A stretch of DNA of 64,000 bases from Candidatus Moraniibacteriota bacterium (GTDB lineage: Bacteria; Patescibacteriota; Minisyncoccia; Moranbacterales; UBA1568), in the NCBI GenBank assembly GCA_013334575.1, contig JAAXXG010000004.1, positions 18,464-82,463 of the forward strand, written 5' to 3'. The translations under genes and the position numbers were made by a program. Numbering within the stretch: position 1 is the stretch's first letter; each line of letters opens with the position of its first letter. The notes beneath the pieces are model-generated. The model was not told where the DNA came from and did no database searches. It saw nothing but the letters and a program-made list of their open reading frames with translations. Of this stretch, positions 4,890 through 63,696 are shown one piece after another.

Positions 4890-6521
4890 ATGCCGATTGC
4901 CGAGAATATCAGGAAGAACCTCAAGTCGGGACTCACGGTCTCGCTCATCTCCATCCCGCTGTCCGTCTCGCTCGCCGTCGCGTCCGGCGTGACGCCGGTC
5001 ATCGGCGTGATGACAGCGGTCTGGGCCGGTCTTATCGCCGCAGCCTTCGGCGGCAGCCATTACAATATCGTCGGTCCGACGGGAGCGCTCTCGGGCATCA
5101 TCGCGACCTTCGTCTTCTCGCAGGGAATCGGAAGCGTGCCGATGCTCGCGATCCTCGCCGGCATCATCATTCTCCTGGCATACTTCTTCCGGCTCGAGCG
5201 GTATCTCATCCTCGTGCCGTCGAGCGTAATCCACGGGTTCACCCTGGGAGTGGCCTTCATCATCGGGCTTAACCAGTGGAACGCCGCGTTCGGACTTCAC
5301 GGGCTCCCGTCGCACGAGAAGTTCTCGGAGAACCTGCTTGAGTCGTTCCGGCACGTTCCGGATCTCTCGCTGCCGACCTTCCTCGTCTTCCTCGTCTTCC
5401 TCGGCGGCCTGTTCCTCTTCAAGCGCTACGTGCCGAAGTTTCCGGGCGCCATCTTCCTCGCTCCGGTCGGTATCCTGCTCGGCTATCTCGGGCAGGCTGA
5501 CATCATCCCGCTTTCGCTCGAGACGCTCGGTATGAAGTACGGGGATATGGGATTCCGTCTCTTTTCGGCGCCTCATTTCTTCTATTCGGCGGCGCTGCTC
5601 AAGGGAGCGCTGGTCATTGCGCTCATCGCGATCCTCGAGACGATGCTCTCGGCCAAGATCGCGGACGGCATGACGAAGACGAAGCATGACGAGCGGAAGG
5701 AGATGTTCGGACTCGGGCTCGCGAACGTCGTATCCGGCCTCATGGGCGGGATGCCGGCGACCGCCGCCCTGGCGCGCACGTCCCTCAACATCAAGAGCGG
5801 TGCGGATCATAAGACATCCGCCATAATCAATGCCGTCGCCGTGACGGTCATCTCGGTTTTCCTGCTCCGCTTCTTCCAGTTCATCCCGATGGCGGTCATC
5901 GCGGCCATCCTGGTCTTCGTCGCGATCCAGATGGTCGAGACGGAGCATTTCTTCCGGTTCTTCCGGTTCGACAAGTCGATCTTCGTGATCTCGGTGATTG
6001 TCGCTTTCGTGACGGTCGCGGAGGATCCGATCGTCGGTATCCTGCTCGGTGTCGTCCTCTCGCTCCTCCTCTCGGTCGACAAGATGTCCCGCGGGCATTT
6101 CCATGTCCGGTTCAACCGCTACGACGAGGGAATCGTCGGCGAGCATTCGGGGGACCAGTTCCGCGAGACCGAGGAGAACGCGGACGTGCTGCTCTACTCC
6201 GTCCGCGGACGCCTCTGCTACTTCAACTGTCGGGCGCACGTGAGCCGCTTCGAGGAAGGACTTGAAAGATACAAGGAGATCATCCTGCGTCTGCGTGAGG
6301 TCCATTTCATCGATATCGACGGCATCGAGGCGCTCAACGAAATCATCTCGATCATCGAGGCACGCGGGCAGAAGGTCGCCCTTACGAGTATCGATCCGGC
6401 GATCGCCGACCTGCTCAAGGAAGGACTCGAGTCCTATAGCCGGCTTGAGAAGGAGGGGATGATCTTCTCCAAGTCCGAAGACGCCGTCCGCGCACTCGGC
6501 ATCGAACCGAAGAAGGAATAG
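4890..6521 (+). CDS. SulP family inorganic anion (sulfate/bicarbonate) transporter with C-terminal STAS domain
   Basis: 543 aa. Many TM helices. SulP signature region (LARTSLNIKSGADHKTSAIINA). C-terminal STAS-like domain (LLYSVRGRLCYFNC...ALTSIDPAIADLL). Confidence 0.85.
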   Translation: MPIAENIRKNLKSGLTVSLISIPLSVSLAVASGVTPVIGVMTAVWAGLIAAAFGGSHYNIVGPTGALSGIIATFVFSQGIGSVPMLAILAGIIILLAYFFRLERYLILVPSSVIHGFTLGVAFIIGLNQWNAAFGLHGLPSHEKFSENLLESFRHVPDLSLPTFLVFLVFLGGLFLFKRYVPKFPGAIFLAPVGILLGYLGQADIIPLSLETLGMKYGDMGFRLFSAPHFFYSAALLKGALVIALIAILETMLSAKIADGMTKTKHDERKEMFGLGLANVVSGLMGGMPATAALARTSLNIKSGADHKTSAIINAVAVTVISVFLLRFFQFIPMAVIAAILVFVAIQMVETEHFFRFFRFDKSIFVISVIVAFVTVAEDPIVGILLGVVLSLLLSVDKMSRGHFHVRFNRYDEGIVGEHSGDQFRETEENADVLLYSVRGRLCYFNCRAHVSRFEEGLERYKEIILRLREVHFIDIDGIEALNEIISIIEARGQKVALTSIDPAIADLLKEGLESYSRLEKEGMIFSKSEDAVRALGIEPKKE

Positions 6522-6707
6522 GGGAAGCCCAAGTGGTTTTTTCGGAAGGCGGGATCGATCATGTTCCGAGATGACTCTTCCTGTTGCTGGGACTGGTTTC
6601 AATGACCGTTGACATCGTAAAAACGGTCGGAGCATCGGTCGTATGCTTGGCGGTCAGGATACGGCTTCCAAAGGCGGGCTTTCGGCTTCGGTCCCGTTGT
6701 AAGCATA

Positions 6708-6735
6708 TAAAAAGCGGAACAGCTGTTCCGCTTGG
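6708..6735. terminator. bidirectional rho-independent terminator between the convergent sulP and the 6752-7474 gene
   Basis: Perfect palindrome AAGCGGAACAGCTGTTCCGCTT flanked by A/T runs. Confidence 0.5.
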
Positions 6736-6751
6736 TGAGTCATCTCCGCTT

Positions 6752-7474
6752 TCATCTCCACTCGAAGTAGAGTCGATTTGATGCGGTATCGGCGACACGG
6801 ATCTTTTCCTCAATTTTGAGTTCGTCTTCATTGAAATCAAACCATAAACGCACCGCTCTTTCATAATCCAGTGGACGTTTTTCTTCTTCGGGTCGTGACA
6901 CTTCGCGTGTGACTATCCGGCTTATTTCGATAAGAGTAATAAAGGGAAAGTTTTTTAATCTTATGTCTAGCCGCCTAATGTTGAGTTCAGCCTTCCTGCC
7001 TATTTCTTGAAGGCTTTTCGCAAAGGCTTGATCCGCGTAAAGAAGTTCAGTTCCATTTTCAAGAGCGTTAAGAAATTTCTTTTTAAGCGCAGGTAGTGTA
7101 GTTTCTTCTAAAATCTCGATTTTCTGCCCTTCCTGTTTGTGCCAAGGGGCGCATATTAACAGACATGAGCGGATTATCAACGTGCTGACTATGAAAATCA
7201 GTAAATGGAACAATATTGGACGATTCGGAAGAAATTGAAATTTTATAGCTATTACAACTAGAGATGCCAGTATCAAGGCGTATGCCCAAATGCGCCTCCC
7301 TCTTTTTTCTTGATTAGAACGCATACTGAATAGTTTTTCCCTCGCATCATCCAGCTCTCTTTGCAGGGTTTTAAACTCATCTAGCACTGGCATGAGGAAG
7401 GTCGCTATTCTTTCCGAAGCGGTTGTCCTTGGGACGATCGTTTTTGCCTCTAGGCTGTCGTCTGGATGTTTCAT
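6752..7474 (-). CDS. hypothetical membrane protein encoded in an AT-richer segment
   Basis: 240 aa. Central hydrophobic helices (IWAYALILASLVVIAIKF, LLIFIVSTLIIRSCLLICAPW). Visibly lower GC than the flanks. Confidence 0.5.
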   Translation of the reverse strand: MKHPDDSLEAKTIVPRTTASERIATFLMPVLDEFKTLQRELDDAREKLFSMRSNQEKRGRRIWAYALILASLVVIAIKFQFLPNRPILFHLLIFIVSTLIIRSCLLICAPWHKQEGQKIEILEETTLPALKKKFLNALENGTELLYADQAFAKSLQEIGRKAELNIRRLDIRLKNFPFITLIEISRIVTREVSRPEEEKRPLDYERAVRLWFDFNEDELKIEEKIRVADTASNRLYFEWR

Positions 7475-11050: not shown

Positions 11051-11602
11051 GTGAATCCTATGATGCCTTCCATGGCGTTTGTCGATCCGAGGCAGGTCAT
11101 CGGTGCCCTTCCCGAGAGACCGAAGGGCACTATCGCGGATTTCGGGTGCGGGGCGGGATATTTTTCCGTCGAGTTCGCGAAGGCGGTCGGGGACGAGGGA
11201 AACGTGATCGCGCTCGACGTGCTTCCTTCGGCGCTCGACGCGGTAGAGGGGAGGATCAAGACCGAGGGGCTCCGCAATATCACGACGAAGCGAGTCAATC
11301 TCGAGCGAGCGAACGGTTCGGGACTCGGTCCGTCGAGTGTCGACTGGGTCATCCTCAAAGACGTGTTGTTTCAGAATGCGAAGAAGGAGATTCTGGTCGG
11401 CGAGATTTTCCGGGTGCTCCGTCCCGGCGGGCACGCGATCATCATGGAGTGGGCGCCGGTTTCCGGCGGAGGAATCGGGCCCGATCAGGAGCTCCGGGTT
11501 CCGCCGGAAGCGCTCAAGGACCTGTTACGGAAGGCCGGGTTTTCCGATGTCCGCGATCTTCAGGTTGGGGCTTTCCATTACGGTTTTCTCGTGACGAAAT
11601 AA
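11051..11602 (+). CDS. class I SAM-dependent methyltransferase
   Basis: 183 aa. Motif I DFGCGAGYFSVEFA. Motif II-like VIALDV. Post-I acidic residues. Confidence 0.8.
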   Translation: MNPMMPSMAFVDPRQVIGALPERPKGTIADFGCGAGYFSVEFAKAVGDEGNVIALDVLPSALDAVEGRIKTEGLRNITTKRVNLERANGSGLGPSSVDWVILKDVLFQNAKKEILVGEIFRVLRPGGHAIIMEWAPVSGGGIGPDQELRVPPEALKDLLRKAGFSDVRDLQVGAFHYGFLVTK

Positions 11603-11607
11603 GGCGT

Positions 11608-13026
11608 ATGAAGGGACGTTTCTCGACATGGTCAAGGATGCTTCTCGTACTTCCGCTTCTCGCATCGGCGGTCGTGCTATCGGGATGCGGAAAGGTGACG
11701 GCACCTTCCTATAAGATCGATCTGGAAGTCTGGGGTATCTTTGACGATTCTGATGCCTATCAGGGCGCATTGAGCACCTATCAGCGCATAGCGCAGTCTC
11801 ATATCGGAGCCGTCACGTACCGGAAGATGACTGCGGATACGTACCGGGAAGACCTGCTGTCCGCGTTCGCGGAGGGGCGCGGGCCCGACGTGTTCCTGAT
11901 CCGCAGTTCGTGGCTTCCGCTGTTCAGGAACCTGATCGTGGCGGCTCCGGAGTACGAGTTCAGTGAGAAGGACTTCCGGGATGCGTTCGTCGATGTCGCC
12001 GCGGACGATCTTGTAGTCGACGGACGTACCTACGGGGCACCGATTTCCGTCGATTCGCTCGGGCTCTACTACAACAAGAACCTGCTGAATGCCGCCGGCA
12101 TCGCGACGCCGCCCTTGACGTGGGACGAGTTGGAGACCGATATCAAGCTGCTTAATTCGGTCGATTATTACGGGAACATACGACAGTCGGGCGTCGCGCT
12201 GGGAACTTCGAAGAACATCAACCGCTCGACCGATATTCTCATGGCAATGGCTGAACAGCGGGGTATCAGGACGCTCCGAGACGGATTCCGTGACGACGTT
12301 GACGTGTCATCGGAACCGATGCGTCAGGCGATGTCATACTATGCCGGATTCGCGAGTATCGGTTCGGAACGGTATTCGTGGAATGCCGACCAGCATTATT
12401 CCATCGACGCCTTTTCCGAGGGGAATCTGGCGATGATGATGAACTACTCGTGGCAGGTCGACGCGATCAGGAAGAAGAACGCGAAACTCAATTTCGGGGT
12501 CGCTCCGCTTCCCCAGATCCGCGGGGCCGCACCCGCGAACTTCGCGAACTACTGGGTGTTCGTCGTCGCCAAGGACCGCAAGGCCCCTTCAACCGACCAG
12601 AAGACGAAGACGTTCCCGGACGGGAAGTACAACGATATCCGGGCTCACGAGTCCTGGCAGTTCCTGCACTATCTCGCCTTTCCGCATCCCGGGAACGCGT
12701 TCGTCCTGCGGAACGCTCTCATGACGGACTCGTCTGCTCAAGTGGAGGTCAAGGAGGATCCTGCCGCGACGATCCTTGCCCGTACCGGGCAGCCGGCGGC
12801 GCGACGGGATCTCATTACGGAACAGCGGAAAGATCCGTGGCTTGCGCCGTTCGCGTACGGAAACCTGATCGCCAAGGGGTGGCGGGTCGGTGATACGGAG
12901 AGCGCAGAGCAGATCCTTTCCGATGCGATCGAATCGGTGAACCGTGGAGAGACGGCGTTGCAGCAGGCACTTTCCGCGGCATTCTCGCAGCTCTCTCAGC
13001 AGCAGAGGAGACTTCCGGGCGATTGA
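11608..13026 (+). CDS. ABC transporter substrate-binding lipoprotein (family 1 extracellular solute-binding protein, sugar-type)
   Basis: ATG 11608. Lipoprotein signal peptide MKGRFSTWSRMLLVLPLLASAVVLSGCGK. SBP_bac_1-like blocks (GPDVFLIRSSWLP, GLYYNKNLLNAAGI...TWDEL). The 5' 460 nt of the six-frame ORF 11146-13026 overlaps the methyltransferase and is not coding. Confidence 0.8.
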   Translation: MKGRFSTWSRMLLVLPLLASAVVLSGCGKVTAPSYKIDLEVWGIFDDSDAYQGALSTYQRIAQSHIGAVTYRKMTADTYREDLLSAFAEGRGPDVFLIRSSWLPLFRNLIVAAPEYEFSEKDFRDAFVDVAADDLVVDGRTYGAPISVDSLGLYYNKNLLNAAGIATPPLTWDELETDIKLLNSVDYYGNIRQSGVALGTSKNINRSTDILMAMAEQRGIRTLRDGFRDDVDVSSEPMRQAMSYYAGFASIGSERYSWNADQHYSIDAFSEGNLAMMMNYSWQVDAIRKKNAKLNFGVAPLPQIRGAAPANFANYWVFVVAKDRKAPSTDQKTKTFPDGKYNDIRAHESWQFLHYLAFPHPGNAFVLRNALMTDSSAQVEVKEDPAATILARTGQPAARRDLITEQRKDPWLAPFAYGNLIAKGWRVGDTESAEQILSDAIESVNRGETALQQALSAAFSQLSQQQRRLPGD

Positions 13027-50238: not shown

Positions 50239-50265
50239 GCTTCACTGACTTCTAACGCCATCCCT

Positions 50266-53868
<3,603 letters not shown>

Positions 53869-53889
53869 GCCCGACACGCATGTCCCGAA

Positions 53890-53925
53890 GAAAACGCTCC
53901 CGATCCGTCGGGGGCGTTTTCGGTT
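53890..53925 (+). terminator. rho-independent terminator after rpoC
   Basis: GAAAACGCTCCCGATCCGTCGGGGGCGTTTTC. Confidence 0.5.
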
Positions 53926-54008
53926 TATACAGACGCATGCGTATCGGAAGTCGATCGTGAATCCGGGAATCGCTTTTTCACTTGTAGGTACGAAAAAGTC
54001 CGACAGTA

Positions 54009-54608
54009 TTACTGTCGGACTTCCTGTTGTCGGTTCGGATTTCCGAGATAGTACGGCATAGTCCGATCGTTCAGGGCCGCCTTGTACTTTACCGCCATGA
54101 CCGCATCCGCGAACGGCTTGGGAATCCATGATTGGAAGTTTTCCGGTCCTTCTGCTACGGCGCGTTTCCTGAGGAATACGAGGTCGCCCGTGAGATGGGC
54201 ACCGATGCTTCGTTGAACAATTTCGATCATTCCGCTGCCGCGGCGGGTAACCGTGATGATCGAATGCGCGGACGAACACCACCCCTGTATGTCGCAGTTC
54301 TTTCCGGTTTCCTGAAGCCAGTATGGATTCAGTTTCTGGCCCGAAGGTCCGCAGACCACTATGACGGATCTGTCCGCATCCCGGAAACGTTCCGGATAGC
54401 TGATCCGTTGCAATTTTCCTCGGAGGGGTTCCGGAACGATAAAAAGTCCATGTTCGGATTTCGATTTCGGTAATCTGAGGATGGCACGTTTGTCGTTTCT
54501 TGCGAGAAGCAGTCTTCGCAGCTCAGTCGCACGGACGGCCGATTCGAATTCGTCGCGACTAATGGCAACCGTGATGTGCGGAGAGGTCGGGATACCGGAA
54601 TAGTTCAT
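54009..54608 (-). CDS. uncharacterised protein, member 1 of a four-gene tandem paralog array
   Basis: 199 aa. Shares the blocks PHITVAISRDEF / VIVVCGPSGQKLNPYWL / GWCSS / GMIEIVQR with the three upstream genes. Confidence 0.55.
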   Translation of the reverse strand: MNYSGIPTSPHITVAISRDEFESAVRATELRRLLLARNDKRAILRLPKSKSEHGLFIVPEPLRGKLQRISYPERFRDADRSVIVVCGPSGQKLNPYWLQETGKNCDIQGWCSSAHSIITVTRRGSGMIEIVQRSIGAHLTGDLVFLRKRAVAEGPENFQSWIPKPFADAVMAVKYKAALNDRTMPYYLGNPNRQQEVRQ

Positions 54609-54722
54609 GATAGGTATTTCTGGCGGTTTGGTTTAAGAATTGATGGTAAGGGGCGAAAAGAGATGATACCTGAGCGGACGGATCCGGTCAACCGGTTGCG
54701 TACAAGTGAAAGGCCTCGCGTA

Positions 54723-55352
54723 TTACGGCGAGGCCTGATCGGTCGTTTTGTGGAAGTACGAGATCCGCAAAAGCGGATTTTTCTCGGTCATTTCGAGATC
54801 TTTCTTTCTGTTACACGCTTTGTCGAGTGCGGCACGGATCGTCTCCTCGTATCTGCAAAGCGTTATTTTGTCGAGATGTCCGATTTTCTCGTCGGTGATT
54901 TTATTTACGAAGATCCTGATAATGCCATCCTGAACGTCTCCCATCGCATGATTCCTGATGATCACTCTGGGATTCTGCGTCTTGGCGCGGACGGTGTATG
55001 CGGTATAGCCTTGATCCGGAGAGAACCAGGCGGTGATTTCCGGCGGCATATCGTCGGAGACATCCCTGAACCATTGCCTGAACCTCCTTCCCTTATGCGT
55101 GCATACGATTGTCGCCGCATCGGTATTCTGCGAGTACGTTTCCGGGACGAAGAGTCGGAGCCGTCGGTTCCGCAGTGATTCGGGAACGTGGAACGCCTTC
55201 TTGTTCGCGTCGAGAATCGGTAACGGCACGATCCGTTTTCCGCCGCTTATCCAGCTCGCTTCGAGAAGTTCCTGGTCGAGCTTTCTCTCGATATCGACGA
55301 CAACCGCGATGAACGGTTCCCGTCCCCGGTACGCTTTTTGCGGTCGTTTCAT
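54723..55352 (-). CDS. uncharacterised protein, member 2 of tandem paralog array
   Basis: 209 aa. Blocks PFIAVVVDIERKL / ATIVCTHKGRRFRQWF / AWFSP / PRVIIRN. Confidence 0.55.
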   Translation of the reverse strand: MKRPQKAYRGREPFIAVVVDIERKLDQELLEASWISGGKRIVPLPILDANKKAFHVPESLRNRRLRLFVPETYSQNTDAATIVCTHKGRRFRQWFRDVSDDMPPEITAWFSPDQGYTAYTVRAKTQNPRVIIRNHAMGDVQDGIIRIFVNKITDEKIGHLDKITLCRYEETIRAALDKACNRKKDLEMTEKNPLLRISYFHKTTDQASP

Positions 55353-55410
55353 GGTGAACGGGTTTTCGTTTGAGGTAAGTCGGTCGAGCGCCTATCGTCG
55401 GAATGTGATC

Positions 55411-56352
55411 TTATGCGGTTCGCCGCTCCAGATGGTAAAACGCGTGGATCCGGTCTTCACTTCCGACTTTGCGTAGGAGGGCCGCGACTGCATCACCGTA
55501 CGGACCGAACGCTCCCGGAGTATCCGACGGACGCTTCCGCATCAGGATGGCCTTTTCCAGGTTGATAGAAGTAACGGATATCCGGTCGCGGACGATGAGG
55601 CGCTTCGCGATCTCGACCGTCCCGTCCGGCCGGTAGCATGCCGTTACCAGGTTCTTCTGACTCGAGAACCATGCTTGGGCGCGTGAGCTGCCCAGCTGAT
55701 CGTCCCGGATCCAGAACGGACGAAGCGGCTTTCCGTCTTCCGCACAGACGACGACCGTCCCGTCGTTTCTGATGTGCTCCGCAAAACACAGATTGAGACG
55801 CATCTCGTTGAACTGCGGATCGAGGTAATACTGCCGATTCCGTTCGAGCAGACTCGGGAGGGAAACGATGGCGGAGTCGTGGCTGACTCTGACCAGCGTC
55901 GCCGTTATCCAAGGGAGGCGTTCCGCTATTTTCGAGAGCGTGTCACGGGGGAGCCAGATCGAGATGAACGGCTGGGTCATTTCATTCAGTCTGAGTTGCA
56001 TGGCTTTTCTGTTGGCTTGAAGTTTGCGAATCCGATCCCGGAGGCGTTTTCCGGGGTTTTTCGTTTTGTGAAAGGGCGACGTGGCATGATACGATATCGT
56101 CTTTCGTCGGTCAATACCCCCCCGGCGCGCCTTGACGAGCCGTGACGATGCGACGGCGTCTTGGCGGGACAACTCGGCTTTTACGGCGAATTTCCGAATT
56201 TTATGAATAAGGCGGCCATGAGTGATGTAGCATGTGAAAAAGGATGGAGCGGTTCGGCGTATTTGAGCATGCGAGCCCAAAGCGTGCCAGGGAGAAGTGT
56301 CTGACGGCGGACAGGATACGAAAAACCCGGCGATGTTCATGCCGGGCTTCAT
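55411..56352 (-). CDS. uncharacterised protein, member 3 of tandem paralog array (with ~110-aa N-terminal extension)
   Basis: 313 aa. Blocks PFISIWLPRDTL / TVVVCAEDGKPLRPFWI / AWFSS / GTVEIAKR. Confidence 0.55.
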   Translation of the reverse strand: MKPGMNIAGFFVSCPPSDTSPWHALGSHAQIRRTAPSFFTCYITHGRLIHKIRKFAVKAELSRQDAVASSRLVKARRGGIDRRKTISYHATSPFHKTKNPGKRLRDRIRKLQANRKAMQLRLNEMTQPFISIWLPRDTLSKIAERLPWITATLVRVSHDSAIVSLPSLLERNRQYYLDPQFNEMRLNLCFAEHIRNDGTVVVCAEDGKPLRPFWIRDDQLGSSRAQAWFSSQKNLVTACYRPDGTVEIAKRLIVRDRISVTSINLEKAILMRKRPSDTPGAFGPYGDAVAALLRKVGSEDRIHAFYHLERRTA

Positions 56353-56365
56353 CGTTTGACGGTTT

Positions 56366-56974
56366 TCAGACTGTCAGGCCGGGTTCTTTTCCACAGGGGT
56401 TGAAGAAGTAGCTCATTCTGTACTTCGGGTACTGTGATTTCGCGATGGCCGCATTTATGGCGTCCCTGAAACATTCGAGATCGGAAGGTAGCGCGTCTCC
56501 GAAACCGAATTCGTGTCTTGATTCCAGCAGATCCGATATGAAGACGGACCGATCTTCTATCACCAGGGAACGCCTTTTGATAATGATTTTCCGTTCTTCG
56601 TACCAGGCGGTCACGGTGTAGGCCGTATTGATGGCGGAGAACCAGCACGTGAGGTAGTCCGGGAGGGGGGACTTGTAGAGAAAATGCGGTCGCAGTTTTC
56701 CGCCTTTCAATCCGCACACGACCGTGGCGCCGCCATCTTTCCGATACCGTTCAGCGATATGCAGTCTGATCTTTTCGCGCGGGAAGCAGTCCGGAAAAAT
56801 GAAGCCGGCCGCTTCTTTCGGCATCCTCCGCAGCGGGACATAGAGGCGGTCTTGGAGCTGCCAAGCCGTCTTTTCGAACGGCGTATCCTTGATGATGTCG
56901 AGGCCATCTTTCGTATCGAGATGAACTGCTACGTACGGCGCGACCATGAAGTACGGTCTTCTGTGTTTTCCCAT
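56366..56974 (-). CDS. uncharacterised protein, member 4 of tandem paralog array
   Basis: Start refined to ATG 56974 (MGKHRRPYFMVAPY). Blocks VAVHLDTKDGL / ATVVCGLKGGKLRPHFL / CWFSA / RKIIIKR. The 833-aa six-frame ORF extending to 58867 is an antisense artefact over the helicase gene. Confidence 0.55.
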   Translation of the reverse strand: MGKHRRPYFMVAPYVAVHLDTKDGLDIIKDTPFEKTAWQLQDRLYVPLRRMPKEAAGFIFPDCFPREKIRLHIAERYRKDGGATVVCGLKGGKLRPHFLYKSPLPDYLTCWFSAINTAYTVTAWYEERKIIIKRRSLVIEDRSVFISDLLESRHEFGFGDALPSDLECFRDAINAAIAKSQYPKYRMSYFFNPCGKEPGLTV

Positions 56975-57028
56975 GTAGATTGGATCTGTGGCCGATATCC
57001 GGCCGTTGACGTGATGTAAAACAACGGA

Positions 57029-58705
57029 ATGAAAATACAGGAAAACAAGTGGCGTGTCAAGGGTCTTCGAAAAGCCCTGTCGGAATTTTCGATGGGATGG
57101 TACGCTTTTCCTATGACCCAGGATCAGGCCCTCTCCATTCTCAGAACCGGTGCGTCGGTCTTCCTTACGGGGGAGGCCGGTTCCGGCAAGACACATGTCG
57201 TGAACCGGTATGCGGCGTACCTGCGTTCCCGCGGGATCCCGTACGCGATGACCGCCTCGACCGGGATCGCGGCGACGCATATCCGCGGTACCACCATCCA
57301 TTCGTGGAGCGGCGTCGGAGCGAACCGTGACATGAGCGACGAAGGGTTCGAGCAGCTTGTGAAGAACCGGAGGGCCGTACGGCGGATCCGTGAGGCCCGC
57401 GTTCTCGTGATCGACGAGGTGTCGATGCTCGACGCCCGGGTCCTCTCGCTCGTGGAGCGGATGTGTCGCCGAGCGAAGGGATCGACGTCGCTTCCCTTCG
57501 GCGGACTGCAGGTCGTGCTCGTCGGCGACTTCTTCCAGCTGCCGCCGGTCTCGCGCGAGGGCGCCTCGCGGTTCGCGTTCGAGTCGTCCGCCTGGGATGC
57601 GCTTCGTCCGGTCGTCTGCTACCTTCACGAGCAGCACCGGCAGGAGGACCCGGCGTTCCTTTCGGTCCTTTCGGCGATCCGCCGCGACGAGGTCGGCGAG
57701 GAACACCTCGCGCTCGTGCGGGGGCGGATTCTTGGGCGGGACGACGTGCCGGACGAGGATCTGCCAGTACTCTTCTCGCATAACGCGGACGTGGACGGTC
57801 TCAACGCCGCGGCACTCGACCGACTGCCCGGCAGGTCGCGCGTCTTCCTCATGGCCAAGCGCGGACCGGACAAGCCGCTCGAAGCGCTCGTGCGCGGGTG
57901 TCTTTCGCCCGAGCGGCTCGAGCTCAAGGAGGGCGCATCGGTCATGTTCACCAAGAACAATCCGGACGAAGGGTACGTGAACGGGACGCTCGGCACCGTC
58001 ATCGGGTTCGATGCGGCGAAGAAGTTTCCGATCGTCCGGACGCGAGACGGCGAGGCAGTGACGGTCGCTCCTGCGGAGTGGTTGGTCGAGGAGGGCGAGG
58101 AGATCGTCGCGCGAGTGCGTCAGATCCCGCTTCGGCTCGCGTGGTCGATCACGATCCACAAGAGTCAGGGTGTCTCGCTCGATGCGGCGGTCATGGACCT
58201 CTCGCGCGTCTTCGAATACGGGCAGGGGTATGTCGCGCTCTCGCGGGTGCGCACGCTTGCCGGGCTCTCGCTCGTCGGACTTTCCGACCGGGCGTTCGCG
58301 ACGCATCCCTCGGTACGCGAGAAGGACCGCCTGTTCCGCGAGGAAAGCGAGCGTGCCGAACGCGCGTACGGTTCGCGAAGCGAGGAGGAGATACGGAAGG
58401 ACGAGGAGGCGTTCCTGGTCCTGTGCGGGGTGTCCGGGAAAAAAGAAGGCGGTCCGCACGGCCGCGCGAAGGGAACCGCGAAGAAGGGAAATGGAAAACG
58501 GAAAGCCGCCGGTGCGGGCGGCGGGTTCGACGAGATACGGAAGAAGCATCCCAAGGCGTATATGCCGTGGAAGGAAGACGAGGACAAATGGCTCCGAAGG
58601 CTTTTCCAAGGCGGCGCCGATGTGAAATCCATCGCCGAAGCGCTCGGCCGACAGCCGGGGAGTATCCGCGCGCGGATGAGGAAGCTCGGGCTGGAGGGAG
58701 ACTGA
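57029..58705 (+). CDS. Pif1-like SF1B DNA helicase with C-terminal HTH-like tail
   Basis: Walker A FLTGEAGSGKTH. VLVIDEVSML. GDFFQLPPV. Motif V-VI AWSITIHKSQGVSLD...YVALSRVR. C-terminal KWLRRLFQGGADVKSIAEALGRQPGSIRARMRKLGLEGD. Possible internal start at 57092. Confidence 0.85.
   Translation: MKIQENKWRVKGLRKALSEFSMGWYAFPMTQDQALSILRTGASVFLTGEAGSGKTHVVNRYAAYLRSRGIPYAMTASTGIAATHIRGTTIHSWSGVGANRDMSDEGFEQLVKNRRAVRRIREARVLVIDEVSMLDARVLSLVERMCRRAKGSTSLPFGGLQVVLVGDFFQLPPVSREGASRFAFESSAWDALRPVVCYLHEQHRQEDPAFLSVLSAIRRDEVGEEHLALVRGRILGRDDVPDEDLPVLFSHNADVDGLNAAALDRLPGRSRVFLMAKRGPDKPLEALVRGCLSPERLELKEGASVMFTKNNPDEGYVNGTLGTVIGFDAAKKFPIVRTRDGEAVTVAPAEWLVEEGEEIVARVRQIPLRLAWSITIHKSQGVSLDAAVMDLSRVFEYGQGYVALSRVRTLAGLSLVGLSDRAFATHPSVREKDRLFREESERAERAYGSRSEEEIRKDEEAFLVLCGVSGKKEGGPHGRAKGTAKKGNGKRKAAGAGGGFDEIRKKHPKAYMPWKEDEDKWLRRLFQGGADVKSIAEALGRQPGSIRARMRKLGLEGD
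58642..58694 (+). repeat. repeat R1 (palindrome-cored), in frame as the 3' end of the helicase gene
   Basis: gctcggccgacagccggggagTATCCGCGCGCGGATGaggaagctcgggctgg. Confidence 0.7.
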
Positions 58706-58790
58706 CGATCCTGTTCGCAGCGTTTGTCTTCCTGATGGCCGTGTCGTATCATAGTATATGAAAGAACGGTAAACAAAGAATCGCATCGCT

Positions 58791-59639
58791 ATGGAATCCC
58801 TTATTCCGTTTGAAGAAGAGCGGATCCGGAAGGTCTGGCATAGAGAGAGGTGGTTCTTCTCGGTCATCGATATCGTCGCGGTTCTGACCGATCAGACGGA
58901 TTTCAAGAAGGCCAAAAGTTACTGGACGACCCTGAAAAGCAGGCTCAAGAAGGAGGGAAGTGAAGTGGTCACAAAATGTGACCGGTTGAAGCTCGTCGCC
59001 CGAGACGGTAAGATGCGTGAAACGGACGTCGCCGATATCGAAATCCTGCTCCGGCTCATCCAGTCTGTTCCGTCGCCGAAGGCGGAACCGCTCAAACTCT
59101 GGCTGGCGCGCGTCGGGACCGAGCGGATCGCCGAGATCCGGGACCCGTCACAAGGCATCGACCGGGCGCGGGATTTGTGGAAGAAATACGGCCGGAGCGA
59201 GAAATGGATCCGGCAACGGATGATGGGACAGGAGACGCGAAACCGGTTGACCGACTACTGGAAGGACCACGATGTGCAGGAAGGTGACGAGTACGCCATT
59301 TTGACGAATATCATCCACGAGGAGTGGTCCGGGCTCGGTGTCCGGGAACACAAAGCGCTCAAGAAGCTGGACACCGCGCATAATCTTCGCGACCACATGA
59401 ACGAAGCGGAGCTCGTCCTGACGGCGCTTGCGGAGTTGTCAACGCGGCAGATCGCCGAGAGTACGGGTGCGACCGGATTCTCGGAGAATACGGTTCCGGC
59501 CCGGAAAGGCGGACGCATCGCGAAAAACGCCCGTCTCGAACTGGAATCGAAGACCGGGAAGCGTGTCGTCTCCGGAGAGAACTTTCTCCCGCCGATGAAA
59601 ACCGGAAAAGAAAAGAGATTGAGGTCGGAAAAGAAATAG
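58791..59639 (+). CDS. dinD: DNA-damage-inducible protein D-like (Bro-N domain + DinD C-terminal domain)
   Basis: N-terminal Bro-N block (WFFSVIDIVAVLTDQTD...KAEPLKLWL). C-terminal HKALKKLDTAHNLRDHMNEAELVLTALAELSTRQ resembles E. coli DinD. Confidence 0.65.
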   Translation: MESLIPFEEERIRKVWHRERWFFSVIDIVAVLTDQTDFKKAKSYWTTLKSRLKKEGSEVVTKCDRLKLVARDGKMRETDVADIEILLRLIQSVPSPKAEPLKLWLARVGTERIAEIRDPSQGIDRARDLWKKYGRSEKWIRQRMMGQETRNRLTDYWKDHDVQEGDEYAILTNIIHEEWSGLGVREHKALKKLDTAHNLRDHMNEAELVLTALAELSTRQIAESTGATGFSENTVPARKGGRIAKNARLELESKTGKRVVSGENFLPPMKTGKEKRLRSEKK

Positions 59640-59665
59640 AACATGCATGGTGCATCACAAAGACC

Positions 59666-59755
59666 CTCGGCCGTCAGCCCGGAAGCATCCGCGCGCGGAT
59701 GAGGAAGCTCGGGCTGGCATGAAGAAAGAGGCTCTCGCGAGAAGAGCCTCTTTTT
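59666..59755 (+). repeat. repeat R2 (palindrome core CATCCGCGCGCGGATG) fused to a terminator hairpin
   Basis: ctcggccgtcagcccggaagCATCCGCGCGCGGATGaggaagctcgggctggcatgaagaaag, then GAGGCTCTCGCGAGAAGAGCCTC followed by TTTTTT. Confidence 0.7.
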
Positions 59756-59775
59756 TCTTTGTGCCGATACGGCGG

Positions 59776-60729
59776 TCACCCTTTCATGACGTCGATCACG
59801 GTGAAGTAGGTGTCGGGTGGTTCGTTCGTGAAGTCGTTGTACTGCGTCTCCTCGATCTTTTTCATGAGAAAATCGATGCAAGGAATCGTCCCGTCGACAT
59901 AGGTCTGTCGGCCGTTCACGTTGTGCGTAAACTCGAGCGTGACGCTGCCGTCCGGTGATACCAGGCGGTAGGTGTGCCAGCCATGGCCGTCGAGATATTT
60001 CGGCAGGATGCCCATCGCGAGCTGTGCCATGCGGTTTCTGATCGCCTTGATCGAATCTTCGCCGCGATAGTTGACGCCGAGCCGTCCGAGGAGCTCGCCC
60101 ACCTTCTGCGCCGTCCCGCTCTTGTCCTTCTTTCCGGCCTGGTGGCTTTCGACGATCTCGAGTGAGAAGCCCTTGAGCGTGTCCGGATAGGTTGTCGCCG
60201 CGTGCTCGAACATCGAGAGCAGGAGAACGATCGCCGGGGACATGTTGGGTGAGATGACGGCCGGAACCCCGGATTGCCTGACGGTACGTTCCAGGGCCTC
60301 GCGATCGCCACCGGTCGTGCCCATGACGAACGGGATGCCGACCTTGCAGAACAGTTCGGCGTTTTCGTTCACCGCCGACGGGACGGAATAGTCCACGATG
60401 ATAAGTTCGTCGTAGCGTTTTTTCAGCTCGCGGAGTTTCGCCTCGCGGCCATCCGGGCCGATCGTCTTGAAGACGGTCTTCTTGTCTGCCGATGACCGTA
60501 CCGATACCGTCTTCGTCGTCGTATCCGGACCGACGAGCGCGTACCGGATGACGGCGTAGCGGTCATCGTTGAGTAATGCCTGTGTCACCTGTGTCGCCAT
60601 TTCTCCTGGCAGGCCGGAAATGAGGATAGACTGTTTTAGTTCCATGATATGCATGATTTGGCGTTGAAGAATTGCTGCTTGTGAAGAATACGAATACGGT
60701 AGCCTATCAGGGTCGGGCGAGACCGTCAA
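59776..60729 (-). CDS. dapB: 4-hydroxy-tetrahydrodipicolinate reductase
   Basis: 317 aa. N-terminal Rossmann GLPGEMA. DapB signature EIVESHQAGKKDKSGTAQK (E-x-H-H/Q-x-K-x-D-x-P/K-SGTA). Confidence 0.8.
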   Translation of the reverse strand: MTVSPDPDRLPYSYSSQAAILQRQIMHIMELKQSILISGLPGEMATQVTQALLNDDRYAVIRYALVGPDTTTKTVSVRSSADKKTVFKTIGPDGREAKLRELKKRYDELIIVDYSVPSAVNENAELFCKVGIPFVMGTTGGDREALERTVRQSGVPAVISPNMSPAIVLLLSMFEHAATTYPDTLKGFSLEIVESHQAGKKDKSGTAQKVGELLGRLGVNYRGEDSIKAIRNRMAQLAMGILPKYLDGHGWHTYRLVSPDGSVTLEFTHNVNGRQTYVDGTIPCIDFLMKKIEETQYNDFTNEPPDTYFTVIDVMKG

Positions 60730-60758
60730 TCACACCGCTGTCCTTAGTCGCTGACCCA

Positions 60759-60832
60759 GGAGCATCCGCGCACGGATGAGGAAGCTCGGGCTGGAATGAA
60801 GAAAGGGATCCTCTTGGAGAATCCCTTCTTTC
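60759..60832 (+). repeat. repeat R3 (CATCCGCGCACGGATG) fused to a terminator hairpin, in the dapB upstream region
   Basis: ggagCATCCGCGCACGGATGaggaagctcgggctggaatgaagaaag, then GGATCCTCTTGGAGAATCCC followed by TTCTTTC. Confidence 0.7.
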
Positions 60833-60849
60833 GTGATGATGCACGGTTT

Positions 60850-61458
60850 TCAGTTTTTCCTGAAGCCTTCCGGAAGGCAAATATTTCGGTAGTACAGGGA
60901 CGCGTACGTCCCATAGTCCTGTTCGGACGGGATTATGACTCGGTTTATTTTTCGAGCAAGAGGAAGTATCGGTTCTGATTTTGACCGCGAGCCGTTTTTC
61001 CAGCAGATTGCTACAGTATCAGAGATGCTTCGGGGAGTCATGATCATGCCGAGCTCCATTCTTCCGTTAGATTGATTCCTCCGGATCAGAAGGGAGCCTT
61101 TCGGCGCATTCGATATCTGAGATTCGTTGGCTATGTTGCGGAAGCTTCTATCCAGAGCCTCGTACGCTTCTTCTCCGGGGAGGTACAGAAAATCTGTCTT
61201 GTAGGAGAGGCTGGCGATTCCGATTTTGTGCAGCGTACCGTCAGCGGTATAGACGGAAAGACTGTCGCGATCGGCGGATTTCGACTCGATTCTCAGACAC
61301 GTTTTCTCTTTGGTGATAATATAGGATCCGATCGGAATATTCTTCAGTTTACGTTGGAATTCTTCCGCGCCATCCAGTGGGTTGGTTGTTTTTACGTACG
61401 CGGCAAAAAGAAAGAGAGTGATACCGAGAATCATCCCGACAAGCGTGAATTTGCGCAT
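60850..61458 (-). CDS. hypothetical secreted/membrane-anchored protein in an AT-richer island
   Basis: Start refined to ATG 61458 (MRKFTLVGMILGITLFLFAAYV, signal/anchor). No recognised family. Confidence 0.45.
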   Translation of the reverse strand: MRKFTLVGMILGITLFLFAAYVKTTNPLDGAEEFQRKLKNIPIGSYIITKEKTCLRIESKSADRDSLSVYTADGTLHKIGIASLSYKTDFLYLPGEEAYEALDRSFRNIANESQISNAPKGSLLIRRNQSNGRMELGMIMTPRSISDTVAICWKNGSRSKSEPILPLARKINRVIIPSEQDYGTYASLYYRNICLPEGFRKN

Positions 61459-61653
61459 GAGTAAACCCGTTTCCGGGCCCTGGTTGAGGTTGGTGATGTG
61501 AAGACTACTATGGCATTCTATTATAGCAGAAAAGAGCCGCATCGTCAACCGTCAGGAAAGGGCTTGGATGAGGCGAAATAGGGAGAAGTAACTTTTGATG
61601 TGTTCAAATATGCACGGCATATGTTTTCTGGTGCAGCAAGCTTTGTGGCTTGA

Positions 61654-62742
61654 TTGGGGCTTTACAAAGGGGTTTTTCGGCGTATAGTGAAGGGAGAAAC
61701 TATTCTTGAACTTCCTATGGAGCGCACCGAACTTCTCAAGAAGATAGAACAACTTCGCGGATCGAAGGCTATCTCGTATGTGACGAGCGATCGGCAGGGT
61801 CCGGTGAATGCACGCATTGCGATGGATATCATCCCGTATATGAGCGAGCAGTTGCGCTCGATCGGCAAGGTTCCGAAGATCGACCTCGTCCTGTTCAGCG
61901 CGGGTGGGGACACGATGGTGCCGTGGCGGCTCGTCTCGATGATCCGTGAGTACTGCGATACCTTCTCGGTTCTCGTGCCGTACAAGGCACACAGCGCGGC
62001 GACGATGATTTCGCTCGGGGCCGACGAGATCGTGATGACCGATATGGGTGAACTGACCCCGATCGATCCCTCGACGGCGAACCCCTTCAATCCCTCCGAT
62101 CCGCAGAATGTTCAGAATAAGATTCCGATCTCCGTTGAGGAGGTGATGGCATACTTCGATCTCGCGAAGAACCGCGTCGGCATTACCGAGGAGGCCGAAC
62201 TGACGAAGGTCTTCAATAAGCTCACGGAGAGCACTCCGTCCGTCCATCCGCTCGCGCTCGGGAACGTGAACCGTACCTACAAGCTCATCCGCATCCTCGC
62301 GAAGCGGCTTCTTGGGAGCCATCGCGAGCCGCTCGGAGAATCCGAGATAGAGATGATCATAGACGCTCTGACCGAGAAACTCTATTCGCATCAGTACGTG
62401 ATAGGTCGCCGCGAGGCCAAGGAAGACCTCGGTATCAAAAGCGTTTCGTACGCCGATGATGAACTCGCCTCGCTTCTCGCCTCGCTGTATGAGTCCTATC
62501 GTGATTCGATGGGCCTTCATGGACAGTGGAATCCCGAGGCCGAAGTCGGCGAGTTCCGCGCCGAGAATAAAAAGGACTACGTCATTGCCGCAATCGAGAG
62601 TGCCGGTAAGTCGAACCGGTTCGAGATCCGTATGGAGTTCAAGAAGACCCAGCAGGTCGTTCCGCAGCAGACCCCGCAGGGGATCGTGAACGTCCAGCAG
62701 GAGCAGGTCTCGTTCCGTATCGTCAATCAGGGGTGGAAGTAA
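61654..62742 (+). CDS. SDH family ClpP-fold serine proteinase (S49-like periplasmic serine protease class)
   Basis: Block DLVLFSAGGDTMVPWRLVSMIREYCDTFSVLVPYKAHSAATMISLGADEIVMTDMGELTPIDP matches the SDH family (DLILHTPGG...VPHYAMSGGTLIALAADEIVM...LGPVDP). Possible internal start 61717 (MERTELL). Confidence 0.65.
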   Translation: MGLYKGVFRRIVKGETILELPMERTELLKKIEQLRGSKAISYVTSDRQGPVNARIAMDIIPYMSEQLRSIGKVPKIDLVLFSAGGDTMVPWRLVSMIREYCDTFSVLVPYKAHSAATMISLGADEIVMTDMGELTPIDPSTANPFNPSDPQNVQNKIPISVEEVMAYFDLAKNRVGITEEAELTKVFNKLTESTPSVHPLALGNVNRTYKLIRILAKRLLGSHREPLGESEIEMIIDALTEKLYSHQYVIGRREAKEDLGIKSVSYADDELASLLASLYESYRDSMGLHGQWNPEAEVGEFRAENKKDYVIAAIESAGKSNRFEIRMEFKKTQQVVPQQTPQGIVNVQQEQVSFRIVNQGWK

Positions 62743-62755
62743 GGAAGGTGTTCGT

Positions 62756-63298
62756 ATGATCGAAGAGATGGCGTATTCTTATTCTGGTCTAGAAGAAGGG
62801 CTTTCCACAGGCGTTGTTCCTGAATCTTTTCGGAGTTCCTGGCAGAATTCTTTAGTAGGTGTAGAAAAAATTGCGACTGAAAACGATGATCCAGATAAAA
62901 GCATACTAGCAAAGTATCAGTTAAAGCAGAAATCAGAAATAGACAGCTTAGTGAAACAAGTAAGAGAGTCTCTGGATGAAATAAAAGAGAAAGAAAATGA
63001 TTTTGATAAAGAATTAAAACGGCATAAGTCAGATTTAGGTAATACAAACAATTTCTTAGTTGGCGTCGTTGTCGCTGTTGTTTTATTTTTTGTGACGACA
63101 CTAACGACGGTATTCTGGGAATTGATACTCTCAAATAAAGCAACAAGCGAGCTGAACCTTCAGTACAATCAGAATTATAAGAATTATTCAGACCGGATTA
63201 TTTCTCAGAAGGATGAAATTGATTCTCTGCAAAGGGAAGTTGATGCTACGAGAAATGAAATTCAGCGCTTGCGAGATAGAAATCAATATCTGAAGTGA
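62756..63298 (+). CDS. hypothetical coiled-coil protein with one central TM helix (AT-rich)
   Basis: 180 aa. Lys/Glu-rich heptad-like segments flank FLVGVVVAVVLFFVTTLTTVFW. Markedly lower GC. Confidence 0.45.
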   Translation: MIEEMAYSYSGLEEGLSTGVVPESFRSSWQNSLVGVEKIATENDDPDKSILAKYQLKQKSEIDSLVKQVRESLDEIKEKENDFDKELKRHKSDLGNTNNFLVGVVVAVVLFFVTTLTTVFWELILSNKATSELNLQYNQNYKNYSDRIISQKDEIDSLQREVDATRNEIQRLRDRNQYLK

Positions 63299-63459
63299 TT
63301 TTTTCCTTTGTAAATTCATGATCGACCTTAAGCAACAGACCATCGAGACATACGAGCGGGCTACGCGGGAGATGGTGCGCGAGTGAACTCATTTTTCTGT
63401 CATTCCGGACTTGATCCGGAATCTACGGCTTCCGTTCAGATGCGTTTTTTGGTCTGATT

Positions 63460-63487
63460 TACTACCATATTACGTAATATGGTAGTA
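63460..63487. promoter_or_regulatory. 28-bp perfect palindrome, candidate operator
   Basis: TACTACCATATTACGTAATATGGTAGTA, about 210 bp upstream of the LysE-family gene. Confidence 0.45.
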
Positions 63488-63696
63488 CTGGGTTGGAATC
63501 GAATGTGGGGTATTTTTTGGATGGCGCGGGCGGTTGTCGTTTTTCGTCAGGAATGACGAACCCCTCGCAATGTTGGAAAAGAGTGAAGATTTTGTTTGCA
63601 GTAAAACTTATCGTCCTGGATCCCGGGTCAAGCCCGGGATGACGGGGTTGTATGATTCATATATGCTGTTGGAGTGAAACGAAAAACGTAGAACAT

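Follow-up and report, generated by a model that had tools for sequence, protein, structure and literature searches.

A PIF1-family helicase gene in the window (the whole 64-kb stretch of Candidatus Moraniibacteriota DNA analysed here) has its last codons repeated twice downstream, and each interval between the copies holds a single gene. We consider it fairly probable (about 0.6) that single-gene modules have been inserted serially into the helicase tail by reciprocal (Campbell-type) recombination. Copy 1, the live tail, is designated T0, copy 2 T1 and copy 3 T2, and tail copies at other loci are labelled likewise; copies 2 and 3 are relics of this tail and do not code (Table 1). The helicase itself (P0001) has a 100% match to an NCBI protein of Candidatus Moranbacteria, and its gene is annotated in the metagenome-assembled genome (MAG) GCA_013336155.1. 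Helicase and tail are kept across the clade, the tail with the consensus ...W.EDED.WL..L..GG.D..SI...LGRQPGSIRSRIEKLGL...

A pattern search of the window with the 31-nucleotide (nt) core ATCCGCGCGCGGATGAGGAAGCTCGGGCTGG gave exact matches at 58664-58694 and 59687-59717 and a match with one mismatch at 60764-60794, the copies being spaced by ~1 kb; any match to the core was seen in 0 of 100 shuffled windows. Extension in the 5′ direction defines a 65-nt unit at 58630-58694, with counterparts at 59653-59717 (85% identical to copy 1) and at 60730-60794 (71%). The repeat positions given in the initial annotation of the window were reproduced by BLAST at 59666-59717 (92%, 52 nt) and 60759-60795 (95%, 37 nt). 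Several of its other observations hold as well. Copy 1 is in frame, the helicase ending with ...LGRQPGSIRARMRKLGLEGD and a stop codon; the peptide-like endings seen in the non-coding copies read CITKTLGRQPGSIRARMRKLGLA-stop in copy 2 and VLSR-stop-PRSIRARMRKLGLE-stop in copy 3; after both of these copies the stop codon is followed by a terminator, a stable hairpin with a T-run; and the intervals contain one gene each, dinD-like (plus strand, Bro-N domain) and dapB-like (minus strand). T0 is intact and in frame, and T1 and T2 are direct repeats of the last 37-65 nt of the target gene. The 16-bp perfect palindrome attributed to all three copies is present in copy 2 only (CATCCGCGCGCGGATG); in copy 1 the palindrome has 14 bp (TATCC...GGATG) and in copy 3 it is disrupted by a G>A change.

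For comparison we used about 180 fetched helicase loci, labelled with L-numbers. Extra tail copies were found at the helicase in four other assemblies, which brings the genomes with arrays to five, the window included; direct repeats of the target end are likewise present in L001, L002, L168 and L174. Different cargo stands at this one target site among the five arrays. The cargo genes (dinD, dapB, lipoproteins and the genes for 364, 111, 218, 219 and 210 amino acids (aa)) are mutually unrelated, save for a trio of lipoprotein paralogues in L002 with 23-41% identity. The paralogues in repeated units that a plain tandem duplication produces were not observed in the window, where dinD, dapB and the lipoprotein gene are unrelated, nor in L174, where the 218- and 219-aa genes are unrelated; the L002 trio is the only paralogous cargo.

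Empty sites are present among the relatives. We found no extra tail copies in the close relatives L004, L006-L008, L086-L091, L094, L167 and L173, none in about 140 more distant loci and none where the helicase is ≤60% identical. The gene of the SDH-type protease, the same gene that forms the window flank at 61717, comes directly after the helicase stop codon and terminator in L008 and L088. L173, the closest to L168 by its helicase, has neither dinD nor a relic, and in L090 dapB stands directly after the helicase terminator. Since the lipoprotein gene of the window is orthologous to the L002 gene located after the helicase, T2 with its terminator and the lipoprotein gene appear to be the old helicase junction, shifted by 2.1 kb. 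An insertion leaving no duplicate may have replaced the tail in L167 (2103-2222; P0003, 81% identity), which leaves the clade consensus after ...SIRSRIEKL and ends with DPTIVEKTDKRGND-stop, with no relic downstream.

In each tail copy we distinguish the stretch that precedes the Ile codon (a-part), a block of 14 nt, ATCCGNNNNNGGAT, and the remainder (b-part). Neighbouring copies always have the block in common, and the similarity to the left and to the right of it changes partner, the switch being located at the palindrome. In the window the cores are identical at 31/31 and 30/31 positions, and the a-parts at merely 25/36 and 16/36. Copy 2 was described initially as a hybrid, and it is one: its 5′ part is like copy 1 and its 3′ part like copy 3. 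The L174 array has the same property, with T0 matching T1 in the a-part (17/18 plus the whole block) and T2 in the b-part (14/17); in L001, T0 and T1 are identical through the block (32/32 nt) and diverge beyond it. L168 has a T0 with the resident-type a-part LKRQPGA, as in P0020, and a T1 that matches the live L001 tail, which is of a different lineage, at 42/42 positions. The a-parts of T1 in the window and T1 in L168 differ at 5 positions, all of them third codon positions of the helicase frame, which indicates that relic segments were copied from live alleles more than once. Also, the relics start 18, 22 or 34 nt before the block; given these different starts they should have arisen in several events.

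These data bear on the rival explanation that we take most seriously among those that dispense with module insertion, local tandem duplication from the helicase tail (by unequal crossing-over or replication slippage) with genes replaced later and cores kept by gene conversion. It would fit L002, where the three paralogous lipoprotein genes all follow one shared kind of promoter module and relics that begin at one tail position, as well as the agreement of cores with the resident helicase tail within the window, L001 and L002. Against it, the cargo is unrelated in the window, L001 and L174, the starts vary between events, T1 of L168 is a foreign (L001-type) tail rather than an own copy, and divergence among the paralogues is far greater than among the intervening relics. 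Duplication also fits poorly with dinD, which lies on the other strand, has its own promoter and keeps equal junctions in three lineages. We therefore regard local tandem duplication as unlikely.

The dinD module has constant junctions. In three genomes the left junction is a b-part ending with KLGLD-stop (KLGLEGD-stop in the window), followed by a homologous promoter region, and the right junction is an a-part, (C)ITKTLGRQP, located 13-14 nt past the stop codon. This linkage, b′′-dinD-a′′, is unchanged in L174 although dinD there sits behind a relic rather than behind the helicase. The 3′ half of dinD with the next 13-14 nt (window 59130-59669) has 92-100% nucleotide identity between the window and L168, while the helicase 3′ regions of the two are mostly 47-77% identical, with up to 88% in one conserved stretch; the identity in the dinD promoter region is about 51%. 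Such mosaic identity suggests recent and ongoing exchange between lineages. Together with the five arrays and the empty sites, the dinD module with equal junctions in three genomes supports the proposal of the initial annotation that a cassette-like layout was generated by repeated recombination at one site.

The dinD-like gene of L168 occupies positions 706-1554. A dinD-like protein with 70-77% identity is present across very distant phyla (Peribacteria, Gracilibacteria, Wirthbacteria), where its gene is usually a lone insertion. Significant direct repeats flank the gene in two contexts unrelated to each other, L172 (40 nt at 90%; gene 4949-6203) and L169 (61 nt at 82%; 26-1420), and no significant ones were detected in L182 or in five viral homologues; dinD may by itself constitute a mobile module of one gene.

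We infer the reciprocal recombination event and a circular or linear donor from the arrangement described above. The locus would be an insertion hot spot with the last 50-70 nt of the helicase gene as its attachment site, and the incoming DNA, about 1 kb long, would bring one gene with its own promoter and a tail copy made of an a-part and a b-part. A crossover in or next to the ATCCGNNNNNGGAT block would join the resident a-part to the incoming b-part, thus re-completing the helicase frame (the new T0), and would join the incoming a-part to the old b-part with the old terminator, producing a hybrid non-coding relic pushed downstream. Starting from an ancestor with the order helicase-T-type C terminator-lipoprotein-SDH protease, entry of the dapB module would have created T2, and subsequent entry of the dinD module would have created T1, with T0-dinD-T1-dapB-T2 as the outcome. 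This two-step order accounts for the hybrid nature of copy 2, for the presence of terminators on T1 and T2 only and for a helicase ending with EGD versus relics ending with A or E. The initial annotation had seen a mobile repeat that encodes a gene tail; the repeat is better seen as copies of the tail, though under the best model the last codons of the live tail would indeed have been delivered by the last module to enter.

Several observations weigh against serial insertion. The type of terminator is not strictly tied to the cargo on its right, unlike what the simplest chain model predicts: type C is paired with the lipoprotein gene in the window, whereas in L090 and L002 its partner is dapB, and type B is paired with dapB in the window but with another gene in L001. 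Identical cores inside one genome could partly reflect gene conversion, and the lipoprotein triplet of L002 may stem from tandem duplication. Arrays were found in five genomes only. No integrase, resolvase or transposase was identified in a non-exhaustive search covering the arrays, the Pfam-annotated flanks of four array genomes (all but L168) and 20 further open reading frames (ORFs) of the window. No circular form or excision product was observed, the detection of which needs read-level data or PCR.

The repeat had also been compared initially with repetitive extragenic palindromic (REP) elements or miniature inverted-repeat transposable elements (MITEs), and with integron cassettes. The unit turned out to be confined to the helicase locus: no further copies (≤3 mismatches) exist in the window besides the three local ones, none in the 4.7 kb beyond it (~69 kb of genome covered), and peptide-motif and self-BLAST scans of the comparison loci detected no unit away from helicase tails and their neighbourhood. 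Thus a dispersed family is not what we see. An attC site of a chromosomal integron, the other form of this explanation, would agree with the palindromic core, the cassette-like 1-kb spacing and the presence of one gene per interval, features that a REP- or MITE-type repeat would share. However, attC sites are imperfect inverted repeats that follow promoterless ORFs of one direction, while here the repeat is a copy of the coding end of a helicase gene without RYYYAAC...GTTRRRY ends, promoter-like sites belong to both dinD and the lipoprotein gene, orientations are mixed, and intI was not found nearby. In the strict sense the locus is not an integron, and we consider both forms of this explanation very improbable.

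Still less credible is an assembly artefact. The source is a MAG, which may contain chimeric joins at a short repeat; on the other hand, the exact repeat is no longer than 31 nt, the order of genes agrees with that of relatives, and the dinD junctions recur in independent assemblies from other samples (L168, L174, L175).

Another possibility is that the helicase tail has been co-opted as a cis-element (acting as terminator or insulator, as a palindromic operator or as a small RNA), with the core kept by selection rather than by recombination. The relics do have a gene's terminator on one side and the following gene's promoter module on the other, and conservation is much higher in the core than in its 5′ flank. 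The fold of copy 2 plus terminator is significantly better than that of shuffled sequences; the significance is due to the terminator, and the copy 1 region shows no folding advantage over shuffles (z = +0.5). We obtained no Rfam match at 58000-62000 in E-value mode. The palindrome is broken in copy 3, in T2 and T3 of L002 and in many live tails of relatives, and cores vary between genomes, tracking the helicase allele of each genome. As copy 2 is located between convergent genes, it cannot be a promoter element, which also counts against a co-opted element; all in all we find it improbable, more so than tandem duplication. A nested inverted repeat, CAGCCCGG/CTCGGGCTG, was considered as a conserved structure and rejected: it is a by-product of the Q-P-G and L-G-L codons, and other genomes do not preserve it.

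If modules were inserted serially, as we favour, the recombination could be due to a site-specific recombinase acting in trans or to RecA-dependent homologous recombination on 30-70 nt of homology. No family of Phage_integrase type is present among the annotated genes within 10 kb of the window locus, and the Pfam-annotated array flanks of L001, L002 and L174 contain no integrase; a degenerate core pattern, used to look for phage or plasmid attP sites, had 0 matches in viral contigs. When crossover points were compared, the shared block always included ATCCGNNNNNGGAT, and the ends of identity varied between events. Judged by sequence, the palindromic block is always included, which agrees with a trans-acting, site-specific enzyme, and the variable identity ends and mosaic a-parts would fit homologous recombination or branch migration, to which we lean slightly. 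Modules that exploit Xer/dif recombination (integrative mobile elements exploiting Xer, IMEX, and pdif modules) rely on the binding of XerC/XerD to a dif-like site of 28 bp, which consists of two 11-bp arms plus a 6-bp spacer. The block shared by the tail copies has arms of 5-7 bp around a 4-bp centre and is GC-rich, which presumably sets it apart from dif sites. A bolder version of serial insertion is an undescribed gene-capture platform of Moranbacteria, members of the Candidate Phyla Radiation (CPR, Patescibacteria), in which a recombinase acting in trans would insert and shuffle ~1-kb promoter-bearing single-gene circles at the short palindromic core in the last codons of a housekeeping gene for a PIF1-type helicase, each circle bringing a replacement C-terminus; such a system would be integron-like, with an attachment site in protein-coding sequence. 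We offer this version tentatively, as doubtful though somewhat less so than tandem duplication.

Table 1. Features of the helicase locus in the window and composition of the arrays found in other genomes (positions refer to the window)
Feature	Position	Strand	Remarks
PIF1-family helicase gene, insertion target	57113..58705	+	530 aa (P0001); C-terminal helix-turn-helix-like tail; Pfam PIF1/AAA_30/Pif1_2B
T0, live helicase tail	58630..58705	+	a-part 58630-58663; core 58664-58694; codons E-G-D and stop 58695-58705
Promoter-like site of dinD module (TTGTCT-17-TATCAT)	58724..58752	+	homologous region upstream of dinD in L168 and L174
dinD-like gene, cargo of module 1	58791..59639	+	Bro-N domain, phrog_15286; counterparts with equal junctions in L168 and L174
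T1, relic tail	59653..59722	+	a-part 59653-59686, derived from a different helicase allele; core 59687-59717; then an Ala codon and stop
Terminator hairpin, type B	59721..59757	both strands usable	between dinD and dapB; folding z = -3.9 and -3.4
dapB-like reductase gene, cargo of module 2	59776..60645	-	Pfam DapB_N/DapB_C; below TIGR02130 cut-off
T2, oldest relic	60730..60799	+	decayed a-part with in-frame stop; core 60764-60794 (30/31); Glu codon and stop
Terminator hairpin, type C	60797..60834		type C also after the L090 helicase and before dapB in L002
Lipoprotein-like gene	60850..61458	-	orthologous (54.5%) to the L002 gene that immediately follows the helicase
Promoter/5′UTR module of minus-strand cassette genes	61459..61575	-	TTGACG-17-TATAAT at 61548-61520, then ggcttggatgagg
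SDH-type serine protease gene, conserved right flank	61717..62742	+	directly after the helicase terminator in L008/L088
Array in L001			helicase-T0-210 aa(-)-T1
Array in L002			helicase-T0-lipo1(-)-T1-lipo2(-), 364 aa(-)-T2-lipo3(-)-T3-111 aa(-), dapB(-)
Array in L168			helicase-T0-dinD-T1
Array in L174/L175			helicase-T0-218 aa(-)-T1-dinD-T2-219 aa(-)

The modules have lower GC content than the helicase gene (48-59% versus 66%), and a hairpin nearly identical to the type B terminator of the window stands after the helicase of L001. The dapB-like gene scores under the curated cut-offs of both dapB models (238 versus 294.6 bits for the plant type), and no other lysine-pathway genes are present in its annotated neighbourhood; thus its role may differ from that of DapB. 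The L001 cassette gene (6214-6846) has a DapB_N-like stretch limited to 73 aa (38% identity).

Unrelated minus-strand cassette genes have a promoter/5′ untranslated region (5′UTR) module in common, ccctcatccaagccctttccggacgg-TTGAC(G)-17 nt-TATAAT-...aaccagggcccggaaacggg-ATG in minus-strand reading. Besides the window site (61459-61575) we found it in L002 (8306-8457, 9160-9274, 11254-11370 and 11842-11959), L006 (12290-12407), L007 (11723-11830) and L086 (about 11215-11300); in L001 and L002 a tail relic begins 5-20 nt past the module. In L002 three tandem, partly palindromic units (cggcttggcaagccagcc) at 12035-12110 lie between a promoter module and a badly decayed tail relic, which has a type C terminator and is located just before dapB.

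Between rpoC and the helicase gene, at 54009-56974 on the minus strand, the window has four distant paralogues (199, 209, 196-313 and 202 aa; 24-26% identity) that belong to no Pfam family and have GC content of 51-59% versus 66% in the helicase; a homologue is present at the equal place in L090, and a different gene in L002. This region looks like a second variable patch, one without tail-type repeats. On the other side of the locus, positions 62800-63600 have GC content of 36-44%, with third-codon-position GC of 0.33 in the ORF 62756-63298, while elsewhere the window is mostly >50% GC; the NCBI annotation places a DUF6941 gene and a 164-aa gene here, and the region is probably another foreign insert. 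We discarded two long minus-strand ORFs, 50242-54282 (1346 aa) and 56366-58867 (833 aa), antisense to rpoC and the helicase gene, as high-GC artefacts rather than genes.

CPR bacteria have tiny genomes. To our knowledge few mobile elements have been described in them, and the ways in which they gain and swap accessory genes are poorly understood. Under serial insertion, the last codons of a conserved helicase would be a reusable docking site for single genes, with scars from which the order of events can be read. Should a dedicated recombinase be responsible, the locus would represent a new cassette system whose site of attachment is coding; should homologous recombination alone suffice, 30-70 nt of ‘portable homology’ would make any neighbouring gene transferable between lineages. 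For annotation, it would follow that C-terminal residues of the helicase vary with the last module inserted.

The helicase-tail array is a member of no named family. Its closest known match is the tandem accretion of integrative elements, together with cis-mobilizable elements (CIMEs), their remnants without integrase, at a protein-coding or tRNA gene's 3′ end, e.g. of ICESt1/ICESt3-related elements at fda (PMC5704250). There, an incoming element restores the gene, older elements that have lost the integrase but keep attL/attR are pushed downstream, and internal att sites remain in the arrays (PMC5704250). Direct repeats made from the target gene's 3′ end, empty sites in relatives and differing cargo at one site are characters of such elements that the helicase locus has as well. 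The helicase locus differs in that its modules are single genes of ~1 kb, an integrase was not seen in arrays or flanks, crossover positions look variable, the host belongs to the CPR, and the target is the part of a helicase gene that codes for the helix-turn-helix tail.

Next closest are the tycheposon islands of Prochlorococcus, in which one integration after another at a single site drives older elements inward and scatters partial tRNAs between cargo (bioRxiv 10.1101/2020.12.28.424599). Partial target copies left between cargo and, probably, serial integration at one site are common to both; unlike the helicase-tail modules, for which no recombinase is known and which keep a coding tail in frame, tycheposons carry tyrosine recombinases and target tRNA genes. 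The minimal mobile elements of Neisseria are variable genes between conserved flanks, swapped between lineages by homologous recombination (PMC3787668). Exchange between lineages by recombination is a likeness, in view of the 92-100% identity in the 3′ half of dinD between lineages with helicases of about 65-75% identity; the Neisseria elements need both flanking genes and have no duplicated target, whereas the helicase-locus modules carry their own copy of the left-flank end.

Integron arrays, finally, resemble the helicase-tail array in having single-gene units, a repeated and partly palindromic site and a fixed platform, with the newest unit apparently nearest to the platform. They differ from it in their intI, attI and attC, none of which was found at the helicase locus, where the units have their own promoters and terminators and lie in both orientations, and the repeat is a copy of the coding end of a gene. 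The presence of the same hot spot with other genes in related bacteria points to an integron-like small gene-capture site in a little-known group of bacteria.

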